In this document: piece by piece, positions 16,459 through 51,152 of the stretch | How the letters are laid out: the number at the start of each line of letters is the position of its first letter | Numbering within the stretch: position 1 is the first letter of the stretch | From: a virus | Reading direction: 5' to 3' (one strand) | Virus record (IMG/VR): IMGVR_UViG_3300045988_120652 | Length of the DNA stretch: 64,000 nucleotides | Translations under genes and position numbers: made by a program | Notes under the pieces: generated by a model | Seen by the model: only the letters and a program-made list of their open reading frames with translations | Told to the model about the DNA's origin: nothing | The model's database searches: none

Positions 16459-17385
16459 ATGGAACTAAGACATTTGCGTTCGTTTGTAAACGTAGCTGAA
16501 ACCAAGTTATTTAGTATGGCAGCCACACGTTGTTGCGTTACCCAGTCGGCGGTAAGCCAGCACATTCGTGCCCTGGAGGACGAGTTGGGCTGCAAATTGC
16601 TTATCCGCACATCACACGGCATTATGCTCACCGAAAGCGGCGAAGCCCTGTTGCCTCGTGCAAAAGAAATACTGAAACAGACCGAGGACTGCAAAGAGCA
16701 AATCTATGCCCTCAACAACTGCATGACGGGCGAACTGCGTATAGGCGTAGGCTCGTTTATATCTCCATACATCCGCATGGCAGCATTGATATTCATGGAG
16801 AGATATCCAAACGTCCGTATCAATGCCGACTTCACCAAAGCCTACCTTCTCAACCAATCACTAAGGGCGCACATGTTAGACCTCGCCTTCACCATGAACA
16901 TGGCATACAGCCACGAAGGTATAGAGACTATACCCTGCATACCTTTTAACGTATATGCCATCATGCGCGACACCCATCCGCTTGCCTCGCTCTCAAAGGT
17001 GTCGTATGAGGACATTCTGAAGCACCCAATCATCATGCCCGACATAGGCGAACGTGCCATTGAGACTTTTCATCAATACATACAGCGCGACCTATATAAG
17101 CTCAACATTAAGTGCATCATCAGCGACCCCGACGAAGCCCTTGCCTCGGTGGAAGAAACCAAGTATATAACCTTCATGCCTAAGCTCTACCTGCGCAACC
17201 ACCCTACCCTTGTGGCGCGTCCCATCGTCGGACTCGAACAGCAGTTGATGAGCAACGCCCACTGTATGCAGGACGTACCTAAGAAGCGAGCTGCACAACT
17301 CTTCCTCGACATCATCCGCGACGAGGTAGTGCCATACATTTCCGTAGCCGAAGAGTCGCAAGGGAAGTTCACACCGCCACCTTGA
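16459..17385 (+). CDS. LysR-family transcriptional regulator
   Basis: N-terminal winged HTH MELRHLRSFVNVAETKLFSMAATRCCVTQSAVSQHIRALEDELGCKLLIRTSHGIMLTESGEAL is the canonical LysR signature. The remaining ~200 aa look like a substrate-binding-like domain. Confidence 0.9.
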   Translation: MELRHLRSFVNVAETKLFSMAATRCCVTQSAVSQHIRALEDELGCKLLIRTSHGIMLTESGEALLPRAKEILKQTEDCKEQIYALNNCMTGELRIGVGSFISPYIRMAALIFMERYPNVRINADFTKAYLLNQSLRAHMLDLAFTMNMAYSHEGIETIPCIPFNVYAIMRDTHPLASLSKVSYEDILKHPIIMPDIGERAIETFHQYIQRDLYKLNIKCIISDPDEALASVEETKYITFMPKLYLRNHPTLVARPIVGLEQQLMSNAHCMQDVPKKRAAQLFLDIIRDEVVPYISVAEESQGKFTPPP

Positions 17386-22769: not shown

Positions 22770-22876
22770 ATGAAAGCAAAAAACAAGGTGCTGCTTGACA
22801 GAAACGAGAGTTCTCGCCCGCCCTTCTAGCCACCGACTACAAATGCCTACACTGTATAATGATTGAATATGATTAA
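22770..22876 (+). pseudogene. TRD-like mini-ORF U1 (frame-disrupted)
   Basis: ATG 22770 opens MKAKNKVLLDRNESS..., which stops at TAG 22827. Another frame reads EFSPALLATDYKCLHCIMIEYD*, a paralog of U4. It is not connected to an in-frame ATG. Confidence 0.5.
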
Positions 22877-23003
22877 GCAGCATCCATTCGACGATTTTCA
22901 TCAGCGCATCTATTGGAGCGGAACCTGTATAGGAACCGTAACTCAACAATGGGGTAATCCTGCGCCTCGTCACGGATGGAGATTAATGATTGAATATGAC
23001 TGA
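22869..23003 (+). CDS. TRD-like mini-ORF U2 (44 aa)
   Basis: MIKQHPFDDFHQRIYWSGTCIGTVTQQWGNPAPRHGWRLMIEYD*. The ATG lies 5 nt before the U1 stop. RIYxxxGxxxTV resembles the C5-MTase variable-region pattern. Confidence 0.55.
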   Translation: MIKQHPFDDFHQRIYWSGTCIGTVTQQWGNPAPRHGWRLMIEYD

Positions 23004-23313
23004 CCCTCACTACAAACGCGGCACCATCCGCAAGGATGGCAAGCTGTATGGCCGCTATCCCGACGGATCGCTCTACCGCATCTACTCCTCCACCGACCTA
23101 CCTTTCCTACAGTTGGTGGACCGAGCGGGCGAGACGTTCCTACGCATACGCCAAGCCACCGAGCTGGGCTACACCGACTGTCCCTGCCCTGGAGCCGCCG
23201 ACCTAAGTTATCCGTCCTCGGCTCTGAGGCGTAGTCGCACAGTCGGGAGGGGTAAGCTCGTAAACGCTCTGACCGCTGCAAGTGGCGGAATTTGCGTGTT
23301 TGTTGAATTATAA
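22996..23313 (+). CDS. TRD-like ORF U3 (105 aa)
   Basis: IRQATELGYTDCPCPGAADLSYPSSALRRSRTVGRGKLVNALTAASGGICVFVEL* resembles the ATKxGY...PxSxTRRGRVGxxxxxTLT block seen in the variable region of many Dcm-type enzymes. Confidence 0.55.
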   Translation: MTDPHYKRGTIRKDGKLYGRYPDGSLYRIYSSTDLPFLQLVDRAGETFLRIRQATELGYTDCPCPGAADLSYPSSALRRSRTVGRGKLVNALTAASGGICVFVEL

Positions 23314-23328
23314 AAGGAGAAATAAATT

Positions 23329-23700
23329 ATGATTATAACGAATGATTGGCGGCTCTGGCTCGCATCAATGTTGTTTACGTTTGTCGTAACAATTTTGTTT
23401 ATGGCTTACATTTGGTGGACAGAGCGAAAGCTAAAGAAAGAGATAAAAAATGATAGAGAAATAGACTATCAGAATTGTGATGGGTATTTCTTGTGTGTGT
23501 TTACCAAAGGTGGTGGATGCGATTTGCACAGAGCCTCGGATGTCAAGCAGGTTGTTTCGTCTGTAAATAAAGATTACATCAACGTAATAATGACAGATGG
23601 TGAAGTAACGCATTATGAAGATGTCGTATCGTATGAGTTCAAACACGTTTTAGATTTGTCCTTGTATAATTTGAATACAGTAAAAAGAGTAGCTGAATAG
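23329..23700 (+). CDS. Membrane-anchored hypothetical protein
   Basis: One N-terminal TM segment (WRLWLASMLFTFVVTILFMAYIWW). The gene interrupts the TRD array. Confidence 0.45.
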   Translation: MIITNDWRLWLASMLFTFVVTILFMAYIWWTERKLKKEIKNDREIDYQNCDGYFLCVFTKGGGCDLHRASDVKQVVSSVNKDYINVIMTDGEVTHYEDVVSYEFKHVLDLSLYNLNTVKRVAE

Positions 23701-23729
23701 GCTTGTAGAACATTTAACTAATAAAATTT

Positions 23730-24101
23730 ATGAAAAGAGAAAAACGACTGCCCGATGTGCTGTTAATGTCGGCTAAAGCATCCACCTTAATGTCAAACTC
23801 AACCAAGGACGCTTGCATCTGCGTCGAGTCTGACGAACAAAGTGTAAGTTTTAAGGACGAACCGTCGGAAGGTGTAACGATGGATATTACAGCCGAGTAT
23901 CGCAACATCGTTCAGTTGTGGCACCCTGCCACAGAAAAGCCTCATTGCATAGGTCAACTTCTCTGTTGGTGTTACGACAGAACATTCTTCGTACACAACC
24001 ATTACAGCCATGACGATGAAAATTGGCATTTATTCATCAGCACTAACAACATAAAGCGTTATTGCTATATTTCCAATTTGGAACCCGAATGGTTTATTTG
24101 A
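23730..24101 (+). CDS. Hypothetical protein
   Basis: 123-aa ORF. Its stop lies 2 nt before the U4 ATG. Confidence 0.45.
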   Translation: MKREKRLPDVLLMSAKASTLMSNSTKDACICVESDEQSVSFKDEPSEGVTMDITAEYRNIVQLWHPATEKPHCIGQLLCWCYDRTFFVHNHYSHDDENWHLFISTNNIKRYCYISNLEPEWFI

Positions 24102-24102
24102 G

Positions 24103-24234
24103 ATGACTGACATTAAGATATCCGTGCATCCCGTTAGCCATCGGCTCGAATGGCGAGGATGGGGTGATTTCTCGCCCTCCCTTCGAGCCACCGACTACAA
24201 ATGCCCACACTGTATAATGATTGAATATGACTAA
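24103..24234 (+). CDS. TRD-like mini-ORF U4 (43 aa)
   Basis: MTDIKISVHPVSHRLEWRGWGDFSPSLRATDYKCPHCIMIEYD*. SPSLRATDYKxP matches the sPTLtAxDYKxP pattern of C5-MTase target-recognition regions. Confidence 0.6.
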   Translation: MTDIKISVHPVSHRLEWRGWGDFSPSLRATDYKCPHCIMIEYD

Positions 24235-24355
24235 TCTTGACTTCTACCAATATCCTCGTGGCAAAAACGGGGGGGTACTAAACACTATGATTTGTCCGAC
24301 CGTTACTATATCTTCATGGCAGCACAACTATTTTCTGATTGAAGAATATGATTGA
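24227..24355 (+). CDS. TRD-like mini-ORF U5 (42 aa), contains a G7 tract
   Basis: MTNLDFYQYPRGKNGGVLNTMICPTVTISSWQHNYFLIEEYD*. The G7 run at 24269-24275 is in frame. The ATG lies 5 nt before the U4 stop. Confidence 0.55.
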   Translation: MTNLDFYQYPRGKNGGVLNTMICPTVTISSWQHNYFLIEEYD

Positions 24356-24488
24356 CATCCAACCCTTAAATGTCTGTATGGGAGGAATAGCAGTAACACT
24401 GAATACACGATACGAGCGACTTTGCATTGAGCATTTGATGTCACTTGCCCACTTTCCGAGGACAGGCGTAATGATAGAATACGAATAA
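24348..24488 (+). CDS. TRD-like mini-ORF U6 (46 aa)
   Basis: MIDIQPLNVCMGGIAVTLNTRYERLCIEHLMSLAHFPRTGVMIEYE*. It ends 10 nt before the motif IX-X ORF. Confidence 0.55.
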   Translation: MIDIQPLNVCMGGIAVTLNTRYERLCIEHLMSLAHFPRTGVMIEYE

Positions 24489-24498
24489 CAGTAACTAT

Positions 24499-24936
24499 AT
24501 GATCACAAAACTCAATTTCACCGACCGCACCATCAAGAGCTATGCCATCCGCAAGCTCACGCCCAAGGAGTGTTTCCGCTTGATGGGCGTTCGCGACAAC
24601 GTAATCGGCACGATGCAGAGCAGCAATGCCCAGGCAGCCGAACGTCTGCCCGACTGGAAGGGCAAGGGTAAACCCGAAGACATGGCTATATCTGCATCAC
24701 AGCAGTACAAGCAAGCTGGAAACAGCATCGTGGTGGACGTGTTGGCCCACATCTACGAGCAGCTTTTCTACCCCGCCCCGCCCAAGCCTCGCCCTGGCGA
24801 ACAGCTCACGCTCTTCGACGACCTCGAAGACTCGCTGCCCGCTTTGCCGCCCCCCCCGCAGCCGACAAGAACGAGGAGAAGATATTCCTCACCACGTTCT
24901 CCGGCTACGACTCTCAGCTCATGGCAGCCGACGTGA
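24499..24936 (+). CDS. C5 DNA methyltransferase C-terminal module (motifs IX and X) plus a Pro-rich linker; the reading frame is lost at the C8 tract
   Basis: IRKLTPKECFRLMGV is motif IX and QQYKQAGNSIVVDVL is motif X. After ...DDLEDSLPALPPPP, the tail (QPTRTRRRYSSPRSP...) looks like out-of-frame sequence. Confidence 0.8.
   Translation: MITKLNFTDRTIKSYAIRKLTPKECFRLMGVRDNVIGTMQSSNAQAAERLPDWKGKGKPEDMAISASQQYKQAGNSIVVDVLAHIYEQLFYPAPPKPRPGEQLTLFDDLEDSLPALPPPPQPTRTRRRYSSPRSPATTLSSWQPT
24850..24857 (+). repeat. C8 homopolymer at the junction between the motif IX-X and motif I-VIII reading frames
   Basis: Read as GCCG-CCCCCCCC-GCAG. One extra C would give ...LPALPPPPAADKNEEKIFLTTFSGYDSQLMAADV..., fusing the two ORFs in frame. 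Confidence 0.8.
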
Positions 24937-25811
24937 TACGCGAGTGGCATCCCGACTTCCGATGGACGTGCAAGGGATGGAGCGACATCGACAAATACGC
25001 CTGTCAGATGCACAACCTCGTCTTCCCTCAGTTTGCCGACTGCGCCCTGGGCGACATCACCAAGATTGACTGGCACGAGGTGAAACGCTCGCTCAAAGGC
25101 CGCGAGGTTGACCTCTTCACCTATTCCTCGCCCTGCCAGGACATCAGTCAGGCTGGCAAGCAGATGGGTTTGCAGGAGGGCAGCGATACCCGAAGCGCAC
25201 TGCTTTGGCGTGTGGCGGATGCCGTGGAGGTGCTTCGCCCGAAGTATCTCTTGCAGGAGAACGTGGCGGCACTGGTAAGCCAGAAGTTCATGCCCGACTT
25301 TCAGAAGTGGCTCGACAAACTCTCCTCGCTCGGCTATGTCTCTCGCTGGGCTCGTCTTAACGCCAAGAACTACGGTGTGCCGCAGAACCGCGACCGTGTG
25401 TTCTGCCTCTCCATGCGCCGTGACGTGGCCTTCGACTATCAGTTTCCCGAACCCTTCGAGCTGCTTATCCGACTGGAGGATGTGCTCGAAGAGGAAGTGT
25501 CCGACCGCTATTTCCTCAAGGATGATGCCGTGAGCAAGTTCCTCAAGGCAAACGACTCTGACAATGCCTTATTCCTTCAATTCGACCTGCCACCGACACA
25601 TGAGGCGGCAATGTTCCTCAAGACATGGCTCACGCTGCGCATGAACACTTTCAACGGATGGGAGAGGGATTTGGACGAACTGCGCGATTGCATCGAGAAC
25701 GAGCGAGATGTATTAAACAGCGATTTTGCAAGTTTCAGCGAGTATCATACATTCCCTTGCGAAGGTTTTGAGGAATTGTTTAAGGAGAATATGAAGAGGA
25801 AGAAGGAATGA
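24921..25811 (+). CDS. C5 DNA methyltransferase catalytic module (motifs I-VIII). Motif I lies upstream of the first ATG in the same open frame
   Basis: This frame is open back to at least 24783 and encodes KNEEKIFLTTFSGYDSQL (motif I, 24897-24917) before ATG 24921. It continues with WSDIDKYA (II), SSPCQDISQAG (IV, catalytic PCQ), TRSALLW (V), LLQENV (VI) and NYGVPQNRDRVF (VIII). A ~100-aa tail of unknown function follows, with no motif IX/X. Confidence 0.85.
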   Translation: MAADVIREWHPDFRWTCKGWSDIDKYACQMHNLVFPQFADCALGDITKIDWHEVKRSLKGREVDLFTYSSPCQDISQAGKQMGLQEGSDTRSALLWRVADAVEVLRPKYLLQENVAALVSQKFMPDFQKWLDKLSSLGYVSRWARLNAKNYGVPQNRDRVFCLSMRRDVAFDYQFPEPFELLIRLEDVLEEEVSDRYFLKDDAVSKFLKANDSDNALFLQFDLPPTHEAAMFLKTWLTLRMNTFNGWERDLDELRDCIENERDVLNSDFASFSEYHTFPCEGFEELFKENMKRKKE

Positions 25812-25999
25812 GAACTGACAACCCACCCGACCGTGTAATCCGTATCATAGCTGATATGATTAGGGGTGGTAGGTTGCTCACCTGCCCTGCCTCGATGTTC
25901 AGCGCAGAACGTTTCAACGGAGCATTTCACGGCATAGCAATAACCATCATGTCGCGCACCGATTGCAGCGACGTATTCTTTGTAGCAGTAGAATTATGA
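25808..25999 (+). CDS. TRD-like ORF U7 (63 aa)
   Basis: ATGA start/stop overlap with the catalytic module. ...RFNGAFHGIAITIMSRTDCSDVFFVAVEL* has the same VEL ending as U3 and U16. Confidence 0.5.
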   Translation: MRTDNPPDRVIRIIADMIRGGRLLTCPASMFSAERFNGAFHGIAITIMSRTDCSDVFFVAVEL

Positions 26000-26142
26000 T
26001 ACTCCCATTTAACACAGAATCCGATGGTACATCACACACTATTAAATCCCAATATTTCAAAATGGGAGCAGCGAATGTGCTCGCCATTTCGTTTGACGGT
26101 GCCAACTTCAAAGCCACTGGCGCAATCGTGATATATGAATAA
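25996..26142 (+). CDS. TRD-like mini-ORF U8 (48 aa)
   Basis: MILPFNTESDGTSHTIKSQYFKMGAANVLAISFDGANFKATGAIVIYE*. TxKSQYxKMGxxN resembles a known C5-MTase TRD pattern. ATGA overlap with U7. Confidence 0.55.
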   Translation: MILPFNTESDGTSHTIKSQYFKMGAANVLAISFDGANFKATGAIVIYE

Positions 26143-26287
26143 CAACCCTCGCCCCATTATCCTCGGCTCCTACAGCCCCTCGCAGAACGGCATCATCGTG
26201 TCGCCACACGGCATAGCCTTGTGCATAGTCGGGGGAGGTAAGGGTCACGACGTGGATAAACCGAAAATATTGATAGAGTATGATTAA
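26135..26287 (+). CDS. TRD-like mini-ORF U9 (50 aa)
   Basis: MNNNPRPIILGSYSPSQNGIIVSPHGIALCIVGGGKGHDVDKPKILIEYD*. It resembles SQxxRVYxxxGxxPTLxAxxGGxxxxxPxIL. Confidence 0.6.
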   Translation: MNNNPRPIILGSYSPSQNGIIVSPHGIALCIVGGGKGHDVDKPKILIEYD

Positions 26288-26463
26288 TCGTTCCGTCCTC
26301 GTCCAACTACCGCACCGAGGAAGCCAAAGCCTTCCGTCAAGAGCATGGCGACCGAGGAGGGTGTAAATACGGCGACAAGTATCACCGCCCAAGTCCGTGG
26401 CCGTAGAGCAATTCGATAACAACAGTAACAAAAGACAACCTATTATGCTTAACATTCATCTGA
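26280..26463 (+). pseudogene. TRD-like unit U10 (degenerate)
   Basis: The TRD-like frame reads NYRTEEAKAFRQEHGDRGGCKYGDKYHRPSPWP(TAG)SNSITTVTKDNLLCLTFI*. It is a paralog of U11, but the ATG (26280) is in another frame and there is an in-frame TAG at 26404-26406. Confidence 0.45.
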
Positions 26464-26621
26464 TACACGAAGCCAGAACCGAACACGCGAAAGCCGTGCG
26501 TCGCTTAATCGGCACTAACGACTTCCGTGATAAGGAATGGCATCTGCGACAAGGATGTTGGATGCAATGTATAGGTACTTCCCTCACCACTGACAATCTG
26601 ATTGCAATATGTTACGATTAA
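26397..26621 (+). CDS. TRD-like ORF U11 (alternative start ATG 26445)
   Basis: ...HEARTEHAKAVRRLIGTNDFRDKEWHLRQGCWMQCIGTSLTTDNLIAICYD* fits the RTExAKxxR...R...LTTxxKDNL class of Dcm variable regions. Confidence 0.5.
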   Translation: MAVEQFDNNSNKRQPIMLNIHLIHEARTEHAKAVRRLIGTNDFRDKEWHLRQGCWMQCIGTSLTTDNLIAICYD

Positions 26622-26648
26622 TAGTACAAATAATAAACAAAAAGAAAT

Positions 26649-26942
26649 ATGAGTCTTTACGCAGAAAAAATAATAGTCAGAGACCACGAACGTAATGAAG
26701 ATGTTGATGTGGCTTTCGGGCACAACACTATTTGCGACTGTGTTACTATCCGCCGAGGAGAAGATACTGTTTGTTTGTCGGACGACGAGTTCGATGCCCT
26801 TGCAGTGTTGATGATACGCGACTTTGTATCGAGGGAGAGTATCGAAAACGCAATAGAGCTAACCAGTACAGACAAGAAGAACCCATATCGCATATTCATA
26901 GCACGAACTGTGGATGATGAAAAATGGAATGGGGATGATTGA
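26649..26942 (+). CDS. Hypothetical protein embedded in the TRD array
   Basis: 97-aa acidic ORF with no TRD-like pattern. It ends ...GDD*, with the U12 ATG 5 nt before its stop, which is the same junction geometry. Confidence 0.45.
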   Translation: MSLYAEKIIVRDHERNEDVDVAFGHNTICDCVTIRRGEDTVCLSDDEFDALAVLMIRDFVSRESIENAIELTSTDKKNPYRIFIARTVDDEKWNGDD

Positions 26943-27106
26943 CTTTCGCATAGCAGCCTTCCGAGGCCGTGCCCCCGATAATCCGTCCAACCGCAAGCAT
27001 CCCTCCAACGGACGCTTCTTTCAGCGAATGGAGATAAACGGGGGGTACAACCAACACCCTCACATCAGTAGGCAAAGACAATATGGTATTGATAACGTAT
27101 GATTAA
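26935..27106 (+). pseudogene. TRD-like unit U12, out of frame at a G6 tract
   Basis: MIDFRIAAFRGRAPDNPSNRKHPSNGRFFQRMEINGG runs up to G6 (27040-27045). The next frame continues TTNTLTSVGKDNMVLITYD*. Seven Gs would give one intact ORF of the RGRxxxNP...QRxE...NTLTSVxKDN class. Confidence 0.55.
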
Positions 27107-27247
27107 ACAAATCCCTTTCGTACAACGCATATCCCAGCTCTGCCCACGTCGGGGTATTCCACGGCATTGTCCGCCCGCTACGACGGATGGGCAGGGCTCT
27201 ACGATGAACACGGACAGCACGCCATTGTATTGATAGAATATGAATAG
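27099..27247 (+). pseudogene. TRD-like unit U13, out of frame at a G4 tract
   Basis: The ATG frame reads MIKQIPFVQRISQLCPRRG (like U2). The TRD-like continuation GYSTALSARYDGWAGLYDEHGQHAIVLIEYE* (like U6) is in another frame. One extra G at 27151-27154 would join them. Confidence 0.45.
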
Positions 27248-27380
27248 GCATACACTAAATTGTCCGTCCGGCATCTGCTGCGTCCTGACATCGCATTACG
27301 CAAGAGAAGGATGGGCGAATATAGCAAGCAATACAACATCACAATGCAAAGCACCCGCAGTATTGATAGAATATGATTGA
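27240..27380 (+). CDS. TRD-like mini-ORF U14 (46 aa)
   Basis: MNRHTLNCPSGICCVLTSHYAREGWANIASNTTSQCKAPAVLIEYD*, a paralog of U8. Confidence 0.55.
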   Translation: MNRHTLNCPSGICCVLTSHYAREGWANIASNTTSQCKAPAVLIEYD

Positions 27381-27543
27381 CAAGTATTACATCGGATGGG
27401 TACGCAGCGGCAAGGGCCTCGTAAAGAGACTACCGCGCAAACGGATAGCCAATGCCGTGACAACATCGCCACCAGGCTGCTTTGCCGACCCTCGCGATGG
27501 ACTGGGCAACACCACACCGCATATAGTATATGAATATGAATGA
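27373..27543 (+). CDS. TRD-like mini-ORF U15 (56 aa)
   Basis: MIDKYYIGWVRSGKGLVKRLPRKRIANAVTTSPPGCFADPRDGLGNTTPHIVYEYE*. Confidence 0.5.
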   Translation: MIDKYYIGWVRSGKGLVKRLPRKRIANAVTTSPPGCFADPRDGLGNTTPHIVYEYE

Positions 27544-27700
27544 CACCGCACGCATCTTCGTAGTCGGCATGATGCAGACACCACCCTACGACCGAATGTT
27601 TGAGCAGAGCTGCCGCGTGTATTCCGCAAAAGGAATATCGCCTACGCTGCATACGCAAGGGGGGGGGGATAGAGAGATAAAGGTATTAGTGGAACTATAA
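27530..27700 (+). CDS. TRD-like mini-ORF U16 (54-56 aa), contains a G10 tract
   Basis: M(NM)NDTARIFVVGMMQTPPYDRMFEQSCRVYSAKGISPTLHTQGGGDREIKVLVEL*. RVYSxxGISPTLxxxGGG is a classic Dcm variable-region pattern. The G10 run (27659-27668) is in frame and encodes GGG. Confidence 0.6.
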   Translation: MNMNDTARIFVVGMMQTPPYDRMFEQSCRVYSAKGISPTLHTQGGGDREIKVLVEL

Positions 27701-46494: not shown

Positions 46495-49194
46495 GTGAAT
46501 ATGGAAAAGAAGTACATTGACATGGGTAGTGTCGGCATGCACCCTAAAGGGGCATACGACGCGAGTGTGACTTACTGTAAGCTACAGCTTGTGACGCACG
46601 GCGGCAACACCTATCTGAGCAAGGCGGACGGCAACATCGGGCACGAGCCTGTGGGTGAGGACGAGTGGTGGAGCCTGCTCGTGGACGCTAAGAGCGCTCA
46701 CGACGGTGCTCAGAGTGCGCAGGAGGCTGCGGAAGCGGCTAACGCTGCCGCCCAGACTGCTAATGACAAGGCTGCGGAAGCTGCCCAGGCTGCGGAGAGC
46801 GTGACTACTGCTACGGCAGGGCTACAGGCTGCTTTGGACAAGGTGGATGCAGCGGCTACGGCTGCGACTTCGGCTTCGGCTTCGGCACAGGCTCAGGCAA
46901 GCCGTGCGCAGGAGGCTGCTGAGCAGGGCGAAGCTCTCAACCTACAGCTTACCGACACGCTGCGTAAGGCTAAGGCGGAGGTGGATAAGGCTGTGGCTAT
47001 TAACAATACGGCAACAGCTAATGAGCAGGAGCGCGTGAAGGCTGAGCATGAGCGTGCAGATGCCAGCCAGCAGGCTGTGATGAACGCTAACACGGCTGCT
47101 GATTCTGCAAATACTGCTGCCGAGAAGGCTAACGGAGGCGCAGAAAAGGTGTCTGCTGCGGTAACTGCTGCCAGCAACGTTAACGCGACTCTTGCTGACG
47201 ACGGATTGCTGACTGTGACTAATCGCAACGGTGAGAGTAAAAGCGTGAAAGTAGGTGAAGGCGAGAAGGTGAACCAGCTTGTAGCGGACATGAAGGAGAC
47301 TAAGGAGGCTGTGGCACAGAACGCTGCGGACATTGCCGAACTGAAGGAGAACGTTAAGGACTACTATGTAGGCGAGAACGACGAGGTGACGGGCGACCCT
47401 CACTTCAAGAACTGCAAGGGCAACAAGGATTTCTTGGGCGAATGGCATCCGTTCCTTATCGACCATACCGACAACACTGGCGAGGCTACACACCCCGTAG
47501 GTCAGCTGATGGACAATAATCACTTCCGCTTTGTGTCGGGTGCGTTTGCGCCTACCGTTGGTATTACAGAGGAAATGCGTGCTGCGTGTGATGTACAACT
47601 CTATACCGATGCCGAGCACACTACCCCACTGACACTGAAAAATGGTGTCGTCGTTACTGATAAGGCTGGCGCACATCCTTACGATGCAACAGAGGTGTAC
47701 AACTCGCTTGGTTTGGTAGACTTGTACGACGGCGAGGGTAACAAGGTGCGTCAGTTATTGCCTTGGGAGACCACAGAGACCAAGTATTCGGTGATGATTG
47801 GTCGCTACGACACCCTATATCCAGTAGACCGCCAGACAGGCGAGAGCGGTAAGGTGCTGTCGGGTATATTCAAGCGTCAGGTGCGCTACGACGGCATTGA
47901 TACGGGCAAATACCCGTTGCTTGGTACGGCATTGGCACCATGCCTGGTGACGACAGTGGGCAACAAGACACGCAACTTCTTCTTTGCGTATGCGGTAGGT
48001 GACGCTAATACTGCAAGCGGTGCGAGCTCAGCAGGCGCGGACATGTGCTCGATGTTTGACGGAGAGGACAGGACTTATCCGCGGTACAGTATTAACCAGA
48101 TGAGTGACATGCAGTACGCACGAGCTAACAATGCTGACGTAAATGCACCAGTGCCGTTTGCCGAAGGCGGTTATCACGCTATCAACACCTTCACGTTGTG
48201 CATGGAACTGCTTTATGGTACAAAGTATCTGCATGACAAGAACTTGTTCGGCTCGGGAATATCGAGCAACGACTCATGTGCATCGGCGGATGACTGGATG
48301 AATAACGGTGGCGTGAGGGTGCGCGAGAAAGGCACTACAGACTGGACATATAAAAAATGGGGCGACCAAACGCCGTTTGGCGTAAAGTCGGATATGAGCA
48401 AGGTTGGTTTTTCGAACTTTGTCAATCAGGAGAAACCGAAGGAGCAGTGTATGGAGAGTCAGATGGCAGCATCGTGGGCTGTGGAATTTGGCATAGCAGA
48501 AGATACGGAGTATGAGGCATACGGACAGACGTATCGCTACAGAAATGTGACAGGAGTAAAGGGACTGGCTGACGGCGTGATGAACTGCAAGGTGTATCGC
48601 ATCAAGACAGGTGCGTGTATGGGTTATAAGGCTGCGGACAGTAAGGTTGAGTATGACTGTGAGTTGTGTCTACGTCTTAGTCTTGTACATGGTATGAACC
48701 TAAGCGGAGACGTGTTCGGCTACTGGGGCGGCGGCATGGAAATGGTGGGCACGGGAAAGCAGCAGGAGAATACTATCCAGGACAAGATAAAGAACACCTA
48801 CATAGACTTCTACCTTGAGCCAAAACAGAAGAACTGGCTCATGGAAAATAAAACCACCCTTAGCGACTTCAAGACGTTTGCATTTGAGGGCGTGTATGCC
48901 AAGATAGGCACGTTCGGACCTCCAATATTAGGCGGCGGTTACTTCAAGAAGCGTATGGGGCTAACTCCTTACAAGACGGAGAACGGCGGAAATATAGATT
49001 CTTATCAATGCTGCTACGGATGGGCAGAACCGTATTGGCTTGACCGATACGGGCAGCGCGTTCGTATAGCCGTGCGCTTTCGTGGCTTTGCGTCTGCTGC
49101 GTATTGTTCGCCTCGGTTTCTGTATGCGTACTACTCGGCTGCTCATACGTCCGTGTCTTATGGCGGTTCTGCCCAGTGTCGCATCGTGCAATAG
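46495..49194 (+). CDS. Tail fibre / receptor-binding protein carrying the DGR variable region at its C-terminus (likely start ATG 46501)
   Basis: Ala/Gln/Glu-rich coiled N-terminal part. The C-terminal 38 codons are the VR (RFRGFASAAYCSPRFLYAYYSAAHTSVSYGGSAQC), which corresponds to the TR-encoded RFRGNANNANCSPRYLNANNSAANTNVNNGGSAQR. Confidence 0.8.
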   Translation: MNMEKKYIDMGSVGMHPKGAYDASVTYCKLQLVTHGGNTYLSKADGNIGHEPVGEDEWWSLLVDAKSAHDGAQSAQEAAEAANAAAQTANDKAAEAAQAAESVTTATAGLQAALDKVDAAATAATSASASAQAQASRAQEAAEQGEALNLQLTDTLRKAKAEVDKAVAINNTATANEQERVKAEHERADASQQAVMNANTAADSANTAAEKANGGAEKVSAAVTAASNVNATLADDGLLTVTNRNGESKSVKVGEGEKVNQLVADMKETKEAVAQNAADIAELKENVKDYYVGENDEVTGDPHFKNCKGNKDFLGEWHPFLIDHTDNTGEATHPVGQLMDNNHFRFVSGAFAPTVGITEEMRAACDVQLYTDAEHTTPLTLKNGVVVTDKAGAHPYDATEVYNSLGLVDLYDGEGNKVRQLLPWETTETKYSVMIGRYDTLYPVDRQTGESGKVLSGIFKRQVRYDGIDTGKYPLLGTALAPCLVTTVGNKTRNFFFAYAVGDANTASGASSAGADMCSMFDGEDRTYPRYSINQMSDMQYARANNADVNAPVPFAEGGYHAINTFTLCMELLYGTKYLHDKNLFGSGISSNDSCASADDWMNNGGVRVREKGTTDWTYKKWGDQTPFGVKSDMSKVGFSNFVNQEKPKEQCMESQMAASWAVEFGIAEDTEYEAYGQTYRYRNVTGVKGLADGVMNCKVYRIKTGACMGYKAADSKVEYDCELCLRLSLVHGMNLSGDVFGYWGGGMEMVGTGKQQENTIQDKIKNTYIDFYLEPKQKNWLMENKTTLSDFKTFAFEGVYAKIGTFGPPILGGGYFKKRMGLTPYKTENGGNIDSYQCCYGWAEPYWLDRYGQRVRIAVRFRGFASAAYCSPRFLYAYYSAAHTSVSYGGSAQCRIVQ
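49068..49181 (+). repeat. DGR variable region (VR)
   Basis: 114-nt alignment with TR 49424-49537. There are 19 differences, and at 18 of them the TR base is A, mostly at positions 1-2 of AAY codons in the VR reading frame. The remaining one is C in TR versus T in VR. Confidence 0.9.
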
Positions 49195-49202
49195 GCGCAG
49201 CC

Positions 49203-49236
49203 GGGTGCAACCCAGTGCAGCGCGGTGCAACCGCGC
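49203..49236 (+). promoter_or_regulatory. Hairpins just downstream of VR (GGTGCAACC x2); candidate DGR homing-enhancing structure
   Basis: GGGT-GCA-ACCC (49203-49213) and GCGCGG-TGCAA-CCGCGC (49220-49236), 22-55 nt after the end of the VR homology. Confidence 0.5.
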
Positions 49237-49423
49237 CATGTCTTTGGCAATCAGAAACAAAATTAGTAACTTTATAGTGGTTTAAAAGATAGAATAAAAT
49301 GAATCAAGACAAAATATTTCCTCAAAAACAGGACAAGCTCAGCATGAGGGCCGAAGCCTCTGAAGCCTGCATGAGAGGTGACGCTATCCATATAGATGAT
49401 AGCTAAAGAGGTTGGTGTCTCCG

Positions 49424-49537
49424 AGCCGTGCGCTTTCGTGGCAATGCGAATAATGCGAATTGTTCGCCTCGGTATCTGAATGCGAACAACTCGGCTGCTA
49501 ATACGAACGTGAATAATGGCGGTTCTGCCCAACGTCG
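49424..49537 (+). repeat. DGR template region (TR)
   Basis: Adenine-rich counterpart of VR, lying in non-coding sequence 226 nt upstream of the RT gene. Confidence 0.9.
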
Positions 49538-49763
49538 GGCATCATAAATGATGCAGAACTAAGAACACGGGAACACCACTCTCGCTCAGGAGAAGCAGAA
49601 AATATCAAAGACAAGGGATGTGAGCGTAGCACGATGGCTGTACGTGATGCGGCGAACGTGACCGAGAGACATCCTGACGGGCAGACAGTCCCGTCAACCT
49701 TTTAAGCCCGACACTGAATATCAACAGCGGAGAAATCCGCATAAAAACATATATATAACAAAC

Positions 49764-51152
49764 GTGCATAGACCTAACTACATCCCCTTCACTGCCGACG
49801 ACTACATAAAGGCTGTGTGGAGTGCCGCAAAAGGCAGAAAGAAAAGACCCGAGGTAAAGGAGGCATTGAAGGATGTAAAAGGGCTATGCGCAAGTATTGA
49901 ACAACATCTCAAAGATGGAAGCTGGCATGAGGACATCAAGTACCGGAAGCTGACCAAGGTGAACAACAACAAGAAGGTGAGGCATATCGACGCGCCTACG
50001 TTCAGAACTTTAGTGTATGAACATCTGCTGAAGAACAAGTTGGAGCCGATATACCGCAGACGCGACCCGTTGGTGTCGATTAACTGCAAGGAAGGATGCG
50101 GAATAACACCATCGGCGAAGCACAAGGAACTGAAAAGCCACTATGTGCTGCCAAGAGTGAAGCACCTGTTCTACGACCTGCGGGATATGGACTGGGTAGT
50201 GACTGCCGACCAACGTCAATGCTACGCTCACGTGAAGCCGAGCGTACTGCGCAAGGAACTGAAATATCTTATTGGCGACAAGTGGCTGATAGACTTCGCT
50301 GTGGAGCTGTGCTTTGTTGACGGGCAGTTGCCTGTAGGCACACCTACGAGTCCGCTGGCTCACCACATACTGATGCTGAGATTCCATGAATGGCTGTGCC
50401 GAAACACCGAATGGCGGCTGTGCTATGCCGACAACTGCATGGTAGCTTGCCGGACGAAGGAAGAAGCACAACAGATGAAGTGGCGAATAAGGCAGTATTG
50501 GTGGTATGAGCTGAAGATGAGGGCGAAGCGTACAGATACGAAGGTTGCTAATATCAACGACGGTAGAGGGATTGACTTCTGCGGTTATAGGGTGATACGC
50601 AACGCCGACAAGAACGTGACAGACTCGAACAAGGGATATTGCCTTATACGCAAGGGCACATTGCTGAGAGCAAGGATGTGTAACAACGACAATTCGTGGG
50701 GCAGCTACTTCGGACTGATGCGGCACACGGACGGATTCGGAGAGATGGTAAAAATAGAAAAGGAGATGAAGTTAAGAGAACTGACAAAAAAGATTCGCAT
50801 AGACCGCAAGATGGACGCTCCGAATATCAAGCCTCTGGAGTTGGCACGTAGCGGACAGGCGTTCACGGTGTTCGATTACGAGATACGCAAGAGCGAGAAG
50901 TCGGGCGAGCCTAACTGGATTAAGATGCTGATAGGTATGCCGGAGGTGACCGAAGACGGCGAGCTTACGGGCAAGATTGTTGCCAGGGAGGTGCATGGTG
51001 GAATGATGGGCATTGTGGCTTGGATGGTGGCAGCGGAGCAGGAGTATGGCAAGAAGACCTTGCTGCCGTTGGAGGACGTGAGGATTGTGGACGAGTGCGG
51101 ATATATCTTTGAAGGCTCGACTAATCAGATGCAGTACATTGATGAATGTTGA
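49764..51152 (+). CDS. Reverse transcriptase (DGR-associated, divergent; GTG start)
   Basis: RT-like blocks are DQRQCYAHVKPSVLRKEL (motif 2-like), QLPVGTPTSPLAHHIL (motif 4-like) and RLCYADNCMVAC (motif 5, YADN in place of YxDD). A C-terminal extension of about 140 aa follows. The gene is adjacent to the TR. Confidence 0.8.
   Translation: MHRPNYIPFTADDYIKAVWSAAKGRKKRPEVKEALKDVKGLCASIEQHLKDGSWHEDIKYRKLTKVNNNKKVRHIDAPTFRTLVYEHLLKNKLEPIYRRRDPLVSINCKEGCGITPSAKHKELKSHYVLPRVKHLFYDLRDMDWVVTADQRQCYAHVKPSVLRKELKYLIGDKWLIDFAVELCFVDGQLPVGTPTSPLAHHILMLRFHEWLCRNTEWRLCYADNCMVACRTKEEAQQMKWRIRQYWWYELKMRAKRTDTKVANINDGRGIDFCGYRVIRNADKNVTDSNKGYCLIRKGTLLRARMCNNDNSWGSYFGLMRHTDGFGEMVKIEKEMKLRELTKKIRIDRKMDAPNIKPLELARSGQAFTVFDYEIRKSEKSGEPNWIKMLIGMPEVTEDGELTGKIVAREVHGGMMGIVAWMVAAEQEYGKKTLLPLEDVRIVDECGYIFEGSTNQMQYIDEC

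Follow-up and report, generated by a model that had tools for sequence, protein, structure and literature searches.

A phage locus of free-standing target recognition domain-like minigenes around a permuted cytosine-5 DNA methyltransferase core: a candidate split, multispecific enzyme with phase-variable specificity subunits

Organization of the locus

The virus record IMGVR_UViG_3300045988_120652 of IMG/VR was analyzed as a single stretch of 64,000 nucleotides (nt), referred to below as the window. The locus under study (positions 22,771-27,700) contains a gene for the catalytic core of a cytosine-5 DNA methyltransferase (C5-methyltransferase) that is surrounded by 16 short units resembling the target recognition domain (TRD) of such enzymes, and all genes of the region lie on the + strand. 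The features are listed below, with lengths in amino acids (aa); "loci" refers to the comparison set of related loci introduced in the next section, dN/dS is the ratio of nonsynonymous to synonymous substitution rates, and G7 and the like denote homopolymer runs of that length.

U1, 22771..22876, + strand: defective U4-type copy, 5'-truncated or frame-broken; the ATG at 22771 is in another frame; TRD-like part 22799-22873, then TAA
U2, 22869..23003, + strand: minigene of 44 aa ending LMIEYD-TGA; 22 loci; dN/dS 0.11
U3, 22996..23313, + strand: minigene of 105 aa ending VFVEL-TAA; last of its block, without an overlapping ATG
S1, 23329-23700, + strand: unrelated small gene within the array, membrane-like
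S2, 23730-24101, + strand: unrelated small gene within the array
U4, 24103..24234, + strand: minigene of 43 aa; relatives have a G7/G8 run at the RGWG(G) position
U5, 24227..24355, + strand: minigene of 42 aa; G7 run at 24269-24275, in frame in the window
U6, 24348..24488, + strand: minigene of 46 aa; VMIEYE-TAA end, with Tyr as TAC and without an overlapping ATG, 10 nt upstream of the core start
Core, 24499..25811, + strand: TRD-less, circularly permuted C5-methyltransferase (motifs IX-X, linker, motifs I-VIII, C-terminal helical extension), split in the window
U7, 25808..25999, + strand: minigene of 63 aa; start of the unit and stop of the core overlap in ATGA
U8, 25996..26142, + strand: minigene of 48 aa
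U9, 26135..26287, + strand: minigene of 50 aa; the commonest unit type, 74 loci
U10, 26281..26463, + strand: pseudogene of a unit of about 60 aa of the RTEEAK...TKDNLL type; start out of frame, TGG changed to TAG
U11, 26445..26621, + strand: minigene of 58 aa
S3, 26649..26942, + strand: unrelated small gene of 97 aa
U12, 26935..27106, + strand: unit with the clearest TRD homology, frame-broken at a G6 run (27040-27045) that G5 would restore
U13, 27099..27247, + strand: unit whose frame is broken at a G4 run, which is G5 in relatives
U14, 27240..27380, + strand: minigene of 46 aa
U15, 27373..27543, + strand: minigene of 56 aa; its family comprises 136 free-standing protein clusters, and it is fused to the core in the relative P0117
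U16, 27530..27700, + strand: minigene of 54-56 aa; HhaI/MpeI-like RVYS..GISPTL..GGG loop, with an in-frame G10 run at 27659-27668

Every unit ends in (V/I)(L/M)IEY(D/E)-stop or in VEL-stop. In directly chained units the ATG of the next unit sits within the TATGA of the Y-(D/E) codons or the TTATGA of VEL-stop, and neighboring units overlap by 4-8 nt; a junction repeat of about 20 nt, TAWTGATWGARTATGAYTRA, is present at 8 junctions. The original prediction for this DNA, made from the sequence alone, had described the units as each having a start and a stop of its own, with all three stop codons in use, three unrelated small genes between the blocks and paralogy between U1 and U4. TAA, TGA and TAG are indeed all used, the small genes were located at 23329-23700, 23730-24101 and 26649-26942, and U1 and U4 have 69 nt in common at 93% identity. 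Twelve units (U2-U9, U11 and U14-U16) are intact from ATG to stop; the remaining four (U1, U10, U12 and U13) are defective in the window. Our unit numbering departs slightly from the earlier one after U11. No copies of the units were found elsewhere in the 64-kb window, and Pfam searches with the units and with S1-S3 gave no significant match. The DNA of the region matched none of the GenBank phages, the protein matches there being all below 60% identity.

A circularly permuted C5-methyltransferase core that lacks a TRD

The assignment of the core to the C5-methyltransferases is clear (PF00145, E=1e-48), with motif IX at residues 15-49 and motifs I-VIII at residues 158-352. The conserved PF00145 motifs I, IV, VI, VIII, IX and X are all present, and the enzymes of known structure that match best are M.MpeI and M.HhaI. 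The original prediction had missed that the order of the motifs is circularly permuted: motifs IX-X (RKLTPKEC, AGNSIVV) come first and are followed by a Pro-rich linker and then by motifs I-VIII (TFSGYDSQ, SSPCQD, QENV, QNRDRVF). The protein starts with MITKLNFTDRTIKSYAIRKLTPKEC, motif IX follows 15 residues on, and there is no N-terminal TRD in the same protein; U6, located directly upstream, is terminated by a stop codon and read in another frame than the core. The segment after motif VIII is about 130 aa long, with residues 365-432 predicted to be helical, and no TRD-like part was found in the core ORF (open reading frame). Natural permuted C5-methyltransferases in which motifs IX-X precede motifs I-VIII are known as type H (M.BssHII, M.Alw26I, M2.Eco31I, M.Esp3I and M2.BsaI), and all the natural permutants described keep an N-terminal TRD, in the order TRD-IX-X-I-VIII (PMC5944983). 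The window core has the same IX-X-first order as the type H enzymes, but it begins 15 residues before motif IX, without the TRD.

To place the locus among its relatives, a set of 80 related loci from IMG/VR was compared (contigs mostly of 50-105 kb, core identity 67-99%). An intact core ORF of about 437 aa is present in 75 of the 81 loci formed by these relatives and the window, and of the approximately 7,500 proteins that match it, the best 120 are nearly all encoded by a single ORF of about 435-449 aa that contains the whole permuted core and no TRD. The earlier placement of a core at 24499-25811 therefore stands as to the kind of enzyme but not as a single ORF, since in the window motifs IX-X (24499-24936) and motifs I-VIII (about 24870-25811) are in different frames. 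The cause of the break is a C8 run at 24850-24857 in place of the relatives' CCCACC, which adds 2 nt; a run of at least five C at this position is absent from 73 of the 81 loci, and C8 is found in this genome only. The downstream ATG at 24921 lies past motif I. Three origins of the frameshift are conceivable: a master off-switch that arose recently, a recent inactivation of the gene, or an error of assembly. Because the core is out of frame at the C8 run, the system of this genome probably has little or no activity, barring slippage that brings the core back into frame. In four relatives (L043, L046, L047 and L071) the core is split by a frameshift near residues 22-50. A dN/dS of 0.42 obtained for the core came from 10 same-length, possibly misaligned sequences and was not used.

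Even within the otherwise poor model of the fusion protein P0117 described below, the C-terminal 70 or so residues of the core (window about 25590-25808) are confidently predicted as a three-helix segment, with a pLDDT (predicted local distance difference test) of 75-85. The segment differs between relatives, and it may serve as a docking platform for the units.

The units are conserved and selected as separate genes

The unit types of the window recur in 22-74 of the 80 loci each, always on the strand of the core, which is far beyond chance and bears out the original description of 16 TRD-like units around a C5-methyltransferase core. A locus carries between 1 and 17 units (median 12), at least 22 types exist overall, and the order and content of the arrays vary between relatives through gains and losses of whole units. 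The starts and stops keep their positions throughout the 80 loci while the stop codon itself interchanges between TAA, TGA and TAG among orthologues; the junctions are thus conserved in related phage genomes. Reassignment of a stop codon was ruled out, the three stops being all used and interchangeable among orthologues. The pooled dN/dS of the units was 0.148 in the annotated frame; the two alternative frames gave 1.50 and 1.93. The claim that each unit has its own start and stop thus holds for the relatives, with conserved boundaries and purifying selection, and fails in the window for the four defective units.

The original prediction had named as its alternative an unusually large graveyard of TRD fragments. 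Such an array would be the remains of one or two multi-TRD methyltransferase genes, or else its stops would be sequencing or assembly errors, and the defects of the core and of four units in the window, together with the error-prone sequencing of homopolymer runs, would fit this explanation. It is contradicted, however, by the low dN/dS in frame (0.15, and above 1 out of frame) and by starts and stops that are kept over 80 independent assemblies while the stop codon changes. The long ORFs elsewhere in the window are intact, and 62% of the units with a run of at least six G are out of frame, far above any consensus sequencing error. We regard this explanation as extremely unlikely and, because of the low in-frame dN/dS and the conserved boundaries, conclude from the sequence comparisons that the units are real, conserved coding genes and not a graveyard. 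Relatives with a single continuous multi-TRD ORF, which would have turned the stops into assembly errors, are contradicted by the stop that follows every unit in the 80 loci.

The codon usage at the unit ends points to selection on the start of the following unit. The Tyr before the final D/E is encoded by TAT at 387 of 412 Y(D/E)-stop ends (94%), whereas the long ORFs genome-wide use 245 TAT and 259 TAC (49% TAT). The overlapping ATG opens an ORF of at least 35 aa in 375 of 445 cases; among the 197 ends without ATG, 179 have no downstream unit, and TAC or Phe TTT is used there. On this codon pattern, the start ATG of each following unit is under selection, and the retention of the ATG where the next unit needs it argues for independent, coupled translation of the units. 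In agreement with this, the U15 family comprises 136 clusters at 90% identity, all of them free-standing proteins of 47-90 aa that have been called in several public sources.

The head-to-tail overlap of units in different frames and the conserved junction sequence might also be read as recoding, in which a frameshift, hop or readthrough at the junctions would produce one multi-TRD polyprotein like the Bacillus phage enzymes. Nevertheless, the change of frame varies (+1 at IEYD, -1 at VEL and, in some relatives, 0, with a stop in frame), neither a slippery heptamer nor a shift-prone codon occurs at the junction, and the array is interrupted by unrelated genes. The unit fused to a core in P0117 retains its own Met, and gene callers give separate proteins of 47-90 aa in the 136 clusters. 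Recoding is accordingly judged very unlikely.

Poly-G runs set the reading frame of single units

The three longest G/C homopolymers of the 64-kb window (G7, C8 and G10) all lie within the locus. Across the loci, runs of at least seven G were counted 147 times in the arrays (322 kb in total) and 12 times in the flanks (661 kb), an approximately 25-fold enrichment. Out of 71 frame-breaking indels, 38 are inside G/C runs of at least 4, and many of the others abut a G run, as read from their contexts by eye and not counted; nearly all of the broken units have their break at a poly-G run, 5-11 bases in length. Units with a run of at least six were in frame in 40 cases and out of frame in 64 (62% out), and units with shorter runs in 447 and 13 cases, respectively. 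A rate of 62% is therefore not consensus sequencing error, and the ratio of 40:64 is close to the 1:2 expected under free slippage. The in-frame run lengths mostly follow a period of 3, as seen for U4, which is in frame at G4, G7 and G10 and, with few exceptions, out of frame at G6, G8 and G11. Differences between near-identical genomes are almost confined to the runs; L032 and L033, for instance, differ by no substitution and four homopolymer indels over 12.9 kb.

The runs coincide with Gly-Gly codons. GGG is a rare Gly codon in the phage (5% of Gly codons), and Gly-Gly is nevertheless written GGG-GGN in 125 of 327 cases in the units, versus none of 50 in the long ORFs. The units thus contain homopolymers within the ORF whose length varies among close relatives and sets the frame, and this pattern is, at the level of sequence, the signature of contingency loci. 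Since the breaks of the broken units lie at hypermutable runs, the array is read as switchable rather than static, and, if the units work as proposed below, apparent frameshifts at G runs should not be "corrected" in annotation. Neither the frameshift of the core nor the location of the broken units at poly-G runs had been noted in the original prediction. Switching by inversion, as in shufflons, was ruled out by the absence of inverted repeats and the single orientation of all units.

Similarity of the units to TRDs, and natural fusions to the core

The proposed resemblance of the units to TRDs was recovered for part of them. Over 84-88% of its length, U12 is 52-60% identical to internal parts of phage proteins annotated as C5-methyltransferases (E=2e-6), and U12 plus the N terminus of the core aligned collinearly with the TRD-IX-X protein Javan179_0020. 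Residues 27-53 of U16 are 63-67% identical to the enzymes of the Bacillus phages H2, rho11s and phi3T (E 7e-4 to 9e-3), and U16 also matches the multispecific enzyme of Bacillus phage SPbeta with an E value weaker than 7e-4; the other units had no match to these Bacillus phage enzymes. In a PDB profile search (E up to 10), all 10 matches of U16 fell on M.MpeI 301-329 and M.HhaI 239-257 (E about 1), that is, on the loop RIYSTRGIAITLSAYGGG directly before motif IX. U3 and U5 gave weak matches to methyltransferase interiors. A tblastn search with the concatenated units returned almost nothing (only U5, at E=0.3), and the PDB profile search gave no significant match for U9 and U13. By sequence comparison, TRD homology is therefore shown for U12 and, over a short stretch, for U16, and is weak for U3 and U5.

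Additional evidence came from natural fusions. P0117 is an in-frame fusion that carries a U15-type unit, with the unit's own Met, at the C terminus of the core. In P0358, an N7-type unit with a YVAVEL end, which is free-standing in relatives, is fused N-terminally to the permuted core (E=1e-6), and P0290 was judged by eye to be a fusion of the same kind; P0252, P0290 and P0358 are relatives with the type H form, that is, with an N-terminal TRD. A model of P0358 had a mean pLDDT of 86 and a pTM (predicted template modeling score) of 0.81, with M.MpeI and M.HhaI as top structural matches. A relationship of U7 to the N terminus of P0358 was not supported by BLAST, the related unit being the N7 type. 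Only single-unit core fusions were found; inspection of proteins and of ORFs of the loci, which was not a systematic search, brought no multi-TRD ORF to light.

These single-unit fusions (P0117, P0290/P0358) would also suit a silent-cassette library, in which only the unit joined or adjacent to the core is used and the others are stored and moved by recombination at the junction repeats of about 20 nt; the presence of the repeat at 8 junctions and the gain and loss of whole units, in order and content, would agree with it. However, with all units in direct orientation and no inverted repeats, exchange could proceed by deletion only, and no recombinase was found among the approximately 20 flanking gene products scanned, the rest of the window not having been scanned. 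Moreover, stored cassettes could do without a start codon, but the ATG is retained precisely at those ends that are followed by a unit and is lost from the others, and poly-G frame switching matters only if each unit is itself translated. A silent-cassette library is thus considered quite unlikely.

In Streptococcus phage Javan179 (L081; MK448694.1, 12603-13881), a prophage methyltransferase is annotated as two coding sequences, the first with motifs I-VIII and a TRD-like segment ending ...GGAVIELIE-stop, which resembles the unit ends of the window, and the second with a U12-like TRD followed by motifs IX-X. The pair may represent a simpler, related form of the split design, or else one gene broken by a frameshift.

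Distant lineages and origin of the layout

Two lineages with cores only 44-47% identical to that of the window, L091 and L092, have 2 and 5 chained minigenes following the core. L091 encodes a 357-aa TRD-less permuted core and then minigenes ending ...KDNLLWIEYI-stop and ...KLLIEY-stop, the second of which is U2-like; the five minigenes of L092 end in VYEL, VYAI, IYYV or IYEL. These comparisons indicate that the layout of a core plus minigenes is older than this phage clade. Poly-G runs are also found in L092, with a G9 run inside the core gene (position 755) and a G11 run at the contig end in a further minigene. L089 (42% identity) was ruled out as a family member, being a canonical-order, split or frameshifted enzyme, and Bacillus phage Deep Blue was ruled out as a permuted relative, having two tandem canonical methyltransferase genes in the same frame. 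By analogy, tandem canonical genes such as those of Deep Blue suggest a route to the present layout: the IX-X end of one gene would have been fused to the I-VIII start of the next, leaving TRD arrays on both sides.

A putative split methyltransferase with exchangeable specificity subunits

With moderate confidence, we propose that the locus encodes a split, multispecific C5-methyltransferase with exchangeable, phase-variable specificity subunits. The catalytic subunit would be the protein of about 437 aa, with all catalytic and cofactor motifs in permuted order and no TRD of its own, and the specificity subunits would be TRD modules of 42-105 aa made as separate proteins from the flanking array, each being translated by termination-reinitiation coupling from the ATG that the preceding unit carries in its Y-(D/E)-stop end. 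Two polypeptides would be needed, given that the core has no TRD and that the units are under selection. A module would dock to the core through its C-terminal strand, (V/I)(L/M)IEY(D/E), as suggested by the fact that this strand runs into motif IX in canonical enzymes and that motif IX of the core is 15 residues from its N terminus. Each docked module would confer one sequence specificity, and the phage DNA would become methylated at many motifs and be protected from several host restriction systems. Slippage at the poly-G runs in the Gly-Gly loops of many modules would move single specificities in and out of frame, and the phage population would hold many combinations of methylation patterns, plausibly as bet-hedging against restriction of both the methylation-sensitive (Type II) and the methylation-dependent (Type IV) kind. 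That this is a widespread anti-restriction class, in which a TRD-less permuted core and a library of free-standing TRDs, each switched by poly-G, give combinatorial methylomes and bet-hedging, is a more tentative claim, to which we give somewhat less than an even chance.

Several observations weigh against the proposal. The core of the window is frameshifted, and nine of the 16 unit types have no detectable similarity to TRDs of characterized enzymes. In the model of P0358 the TRD part (residues 1-60) reached a pLDDT of only 37-67, and AlphaFold with a shallow alignment gave a mean pLDDT of 40 for the P0117 core-U15 fusion. Some relatives (L067, L073 and L070) have an intact TRD-less core but only 1-3 recognizable units nearby. 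The tract-length differences were observed between assemblies, in which neutral hypermutability and selected switching are inseparable, and we infer translation, docking and trans-assembly, multispecific methylation, anti-restriction and the adaptive value of switching from the sequence patterns described above. Finally, in the closest experimental analogue, in which M.MpeI or M.SssI was engineered into an [IX-X-I-VIII] protein and an isolated TRD, no activity was seen in E. coli (PMC5944983).

Part of this evidence would also fit a different role of the units, as real mini-proteins that do not serve as TRDs of the core. They might bind DNA, or act on restriction enzymes or methyltransferases of the host as decoys or inhibitors, and the core would work alone with relaxed or no specificity or use its helical C-terminal extension. 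The nine unit types lacking TRD homology, the confidently predicted three-helix extension, the relatives with very few units and the failure of engineered isolated TRDs to complement all fit such a role. In contrast, the units are strictly co-localized with permuted cores devoid of a TRD in three lineages, despite core identities of only 44-47%, their common C-terminal strand is the strand before motif IX in canonical enzymes, and units are covalently fused to cores at the positions expected of a TRD. A non-TRD role is therefore regarded as rather unlikely. In L070, the units lie about 4 kb downstream of the core.

The closest known counterparts of the proposed enzyme are the multispecific methyltransferases of Bacillus phages (M.SPRI, M.Phi3TI, M.Rho11sI, M.SPbetaI and M.H2I), which likewise are phage-encoded and combine one catalytic scaffold with several small tandem TRD modules, each thought to give one specificity. 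Their TRDs are said to have been put by Trautner et al., in 1996, at roughly 40-55 aa, a size comparable to that of the units. In the Bacillus phage enzymes, however, all TRDs are in one polypeptide between motifs VIII and IX, in canonical order, whereas here a stop follows every unit in the 80 loci, each TRD has its own gene, the core is permuted and TRD-less, the array is far larger and poly-G switches are present in many units.

Split C5-methyltransferases are known to be capable of reassembly, both in natural cases (M.AquI, M.EcoHK31I) and in artificial ones (PMC3404938, PMC5944983). In M.AquI, M.EcoHK31I and split M.HhaI, M.SssI and M.BspRI, activity arises, as proposed here, from separate polypeptides with the break in or near the variable region (PMC3404938). 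The M.AquI type nevertheless has one fixed pair of partners, the small subunit of which carries motifs IX-X or IX, while in the present system the small subunits would be TRD only and many alternative partners would serve one core. The Type I HsdS protein is, like the proposed modules, a separate, exchangeable and translationally coupled specificity subunit (cf. hsdM-hsdS; PMC3510504), and the Type III mod phasevarions also switch methylation specificity through simple repeats within the ORF, which here are homopolymers. Both Type I and Type III systems differ in having no sequence relationship to this locus and in being bacterial adenine methyltransferases, as opposed to a phage C5 enzyme with many independently switchable subunits. 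In line with the original statement that no described system with separate TRD minigenes was known to its author, a literature search brought up no report on TRDs encoded as free-standing genes or on phage methyltransferases switched by poly-G, and there is a substantial chance that the locus represents a new class of anti-restriction system.

If the proposal is correct, the locus would provide the first case of a C5-methyltransferase that reads DNA through a separate and interchangeable subunit, of about 45-60 aa, and it would bear on the old question, raised by the Bacillus phage enzymes, of the way in which several TRDs alternate on a single catalytic domain. It would further provide a minimal natural toolkit for programmable cytosine methylation and a rare case of simple-repeat phase variation in a virus, and hundreds of "hypothetical" ORFs of 40-60 aa in the gut virome would gain a function. 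Abundant human-gut phages, probably of Prevotella, would then diversify both an epigenetic coat and their receptor-binding proteins.

Host and other features of the window

Two Prevotella contigs from metagenome-assembled genomes carry cores 93-94% identical to that of the window, and one protein of the U15 family is attributed to Alloprevotella. The array adjoins a gene for an HU-HIG protein, which we take to be of a kind associated with Bacteroidota. The host is probably Prevotella, although the binning of phage contigs is unreliable and these data are a hint only. No TET-type dioxygenase, which would link to hypermodification through 5-hydroxymethylcytosine, was found among the approximately 20 flanking gene products scanned, most genes of the window lying outside that scan.

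Elsewhere, the window contains a diversity-generating retroelement (46495-51152) with a reverse transcriptase ORF (49764-51152; phrog_1423). Its template repeat (49424-49537) and variable repeat (49068-49181) are 83% identical, the inspected mismatches lie at template adenines, and the variable repeat is located at the 3' end of an 899-aa ORF (46495-49194). The target of the retroelement is likely a receptor-binding protein, which would thus also be diversified by the phage. Just downstream of the reverse transcriptase, between 51000 and 53000, the GC skew is strongly positive (0.32-0.43) and the AT skew negative, and a 47-nt repeat resembling GAATGTTGAATTTTGA is found in three copies, at 51144, 52264 and 52796. 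Finally, a full-length LysR-type transcription regulator (HTH_1 plus LysR_substrate), an unusual cargo for a phage, is encoded at 16459-17385.

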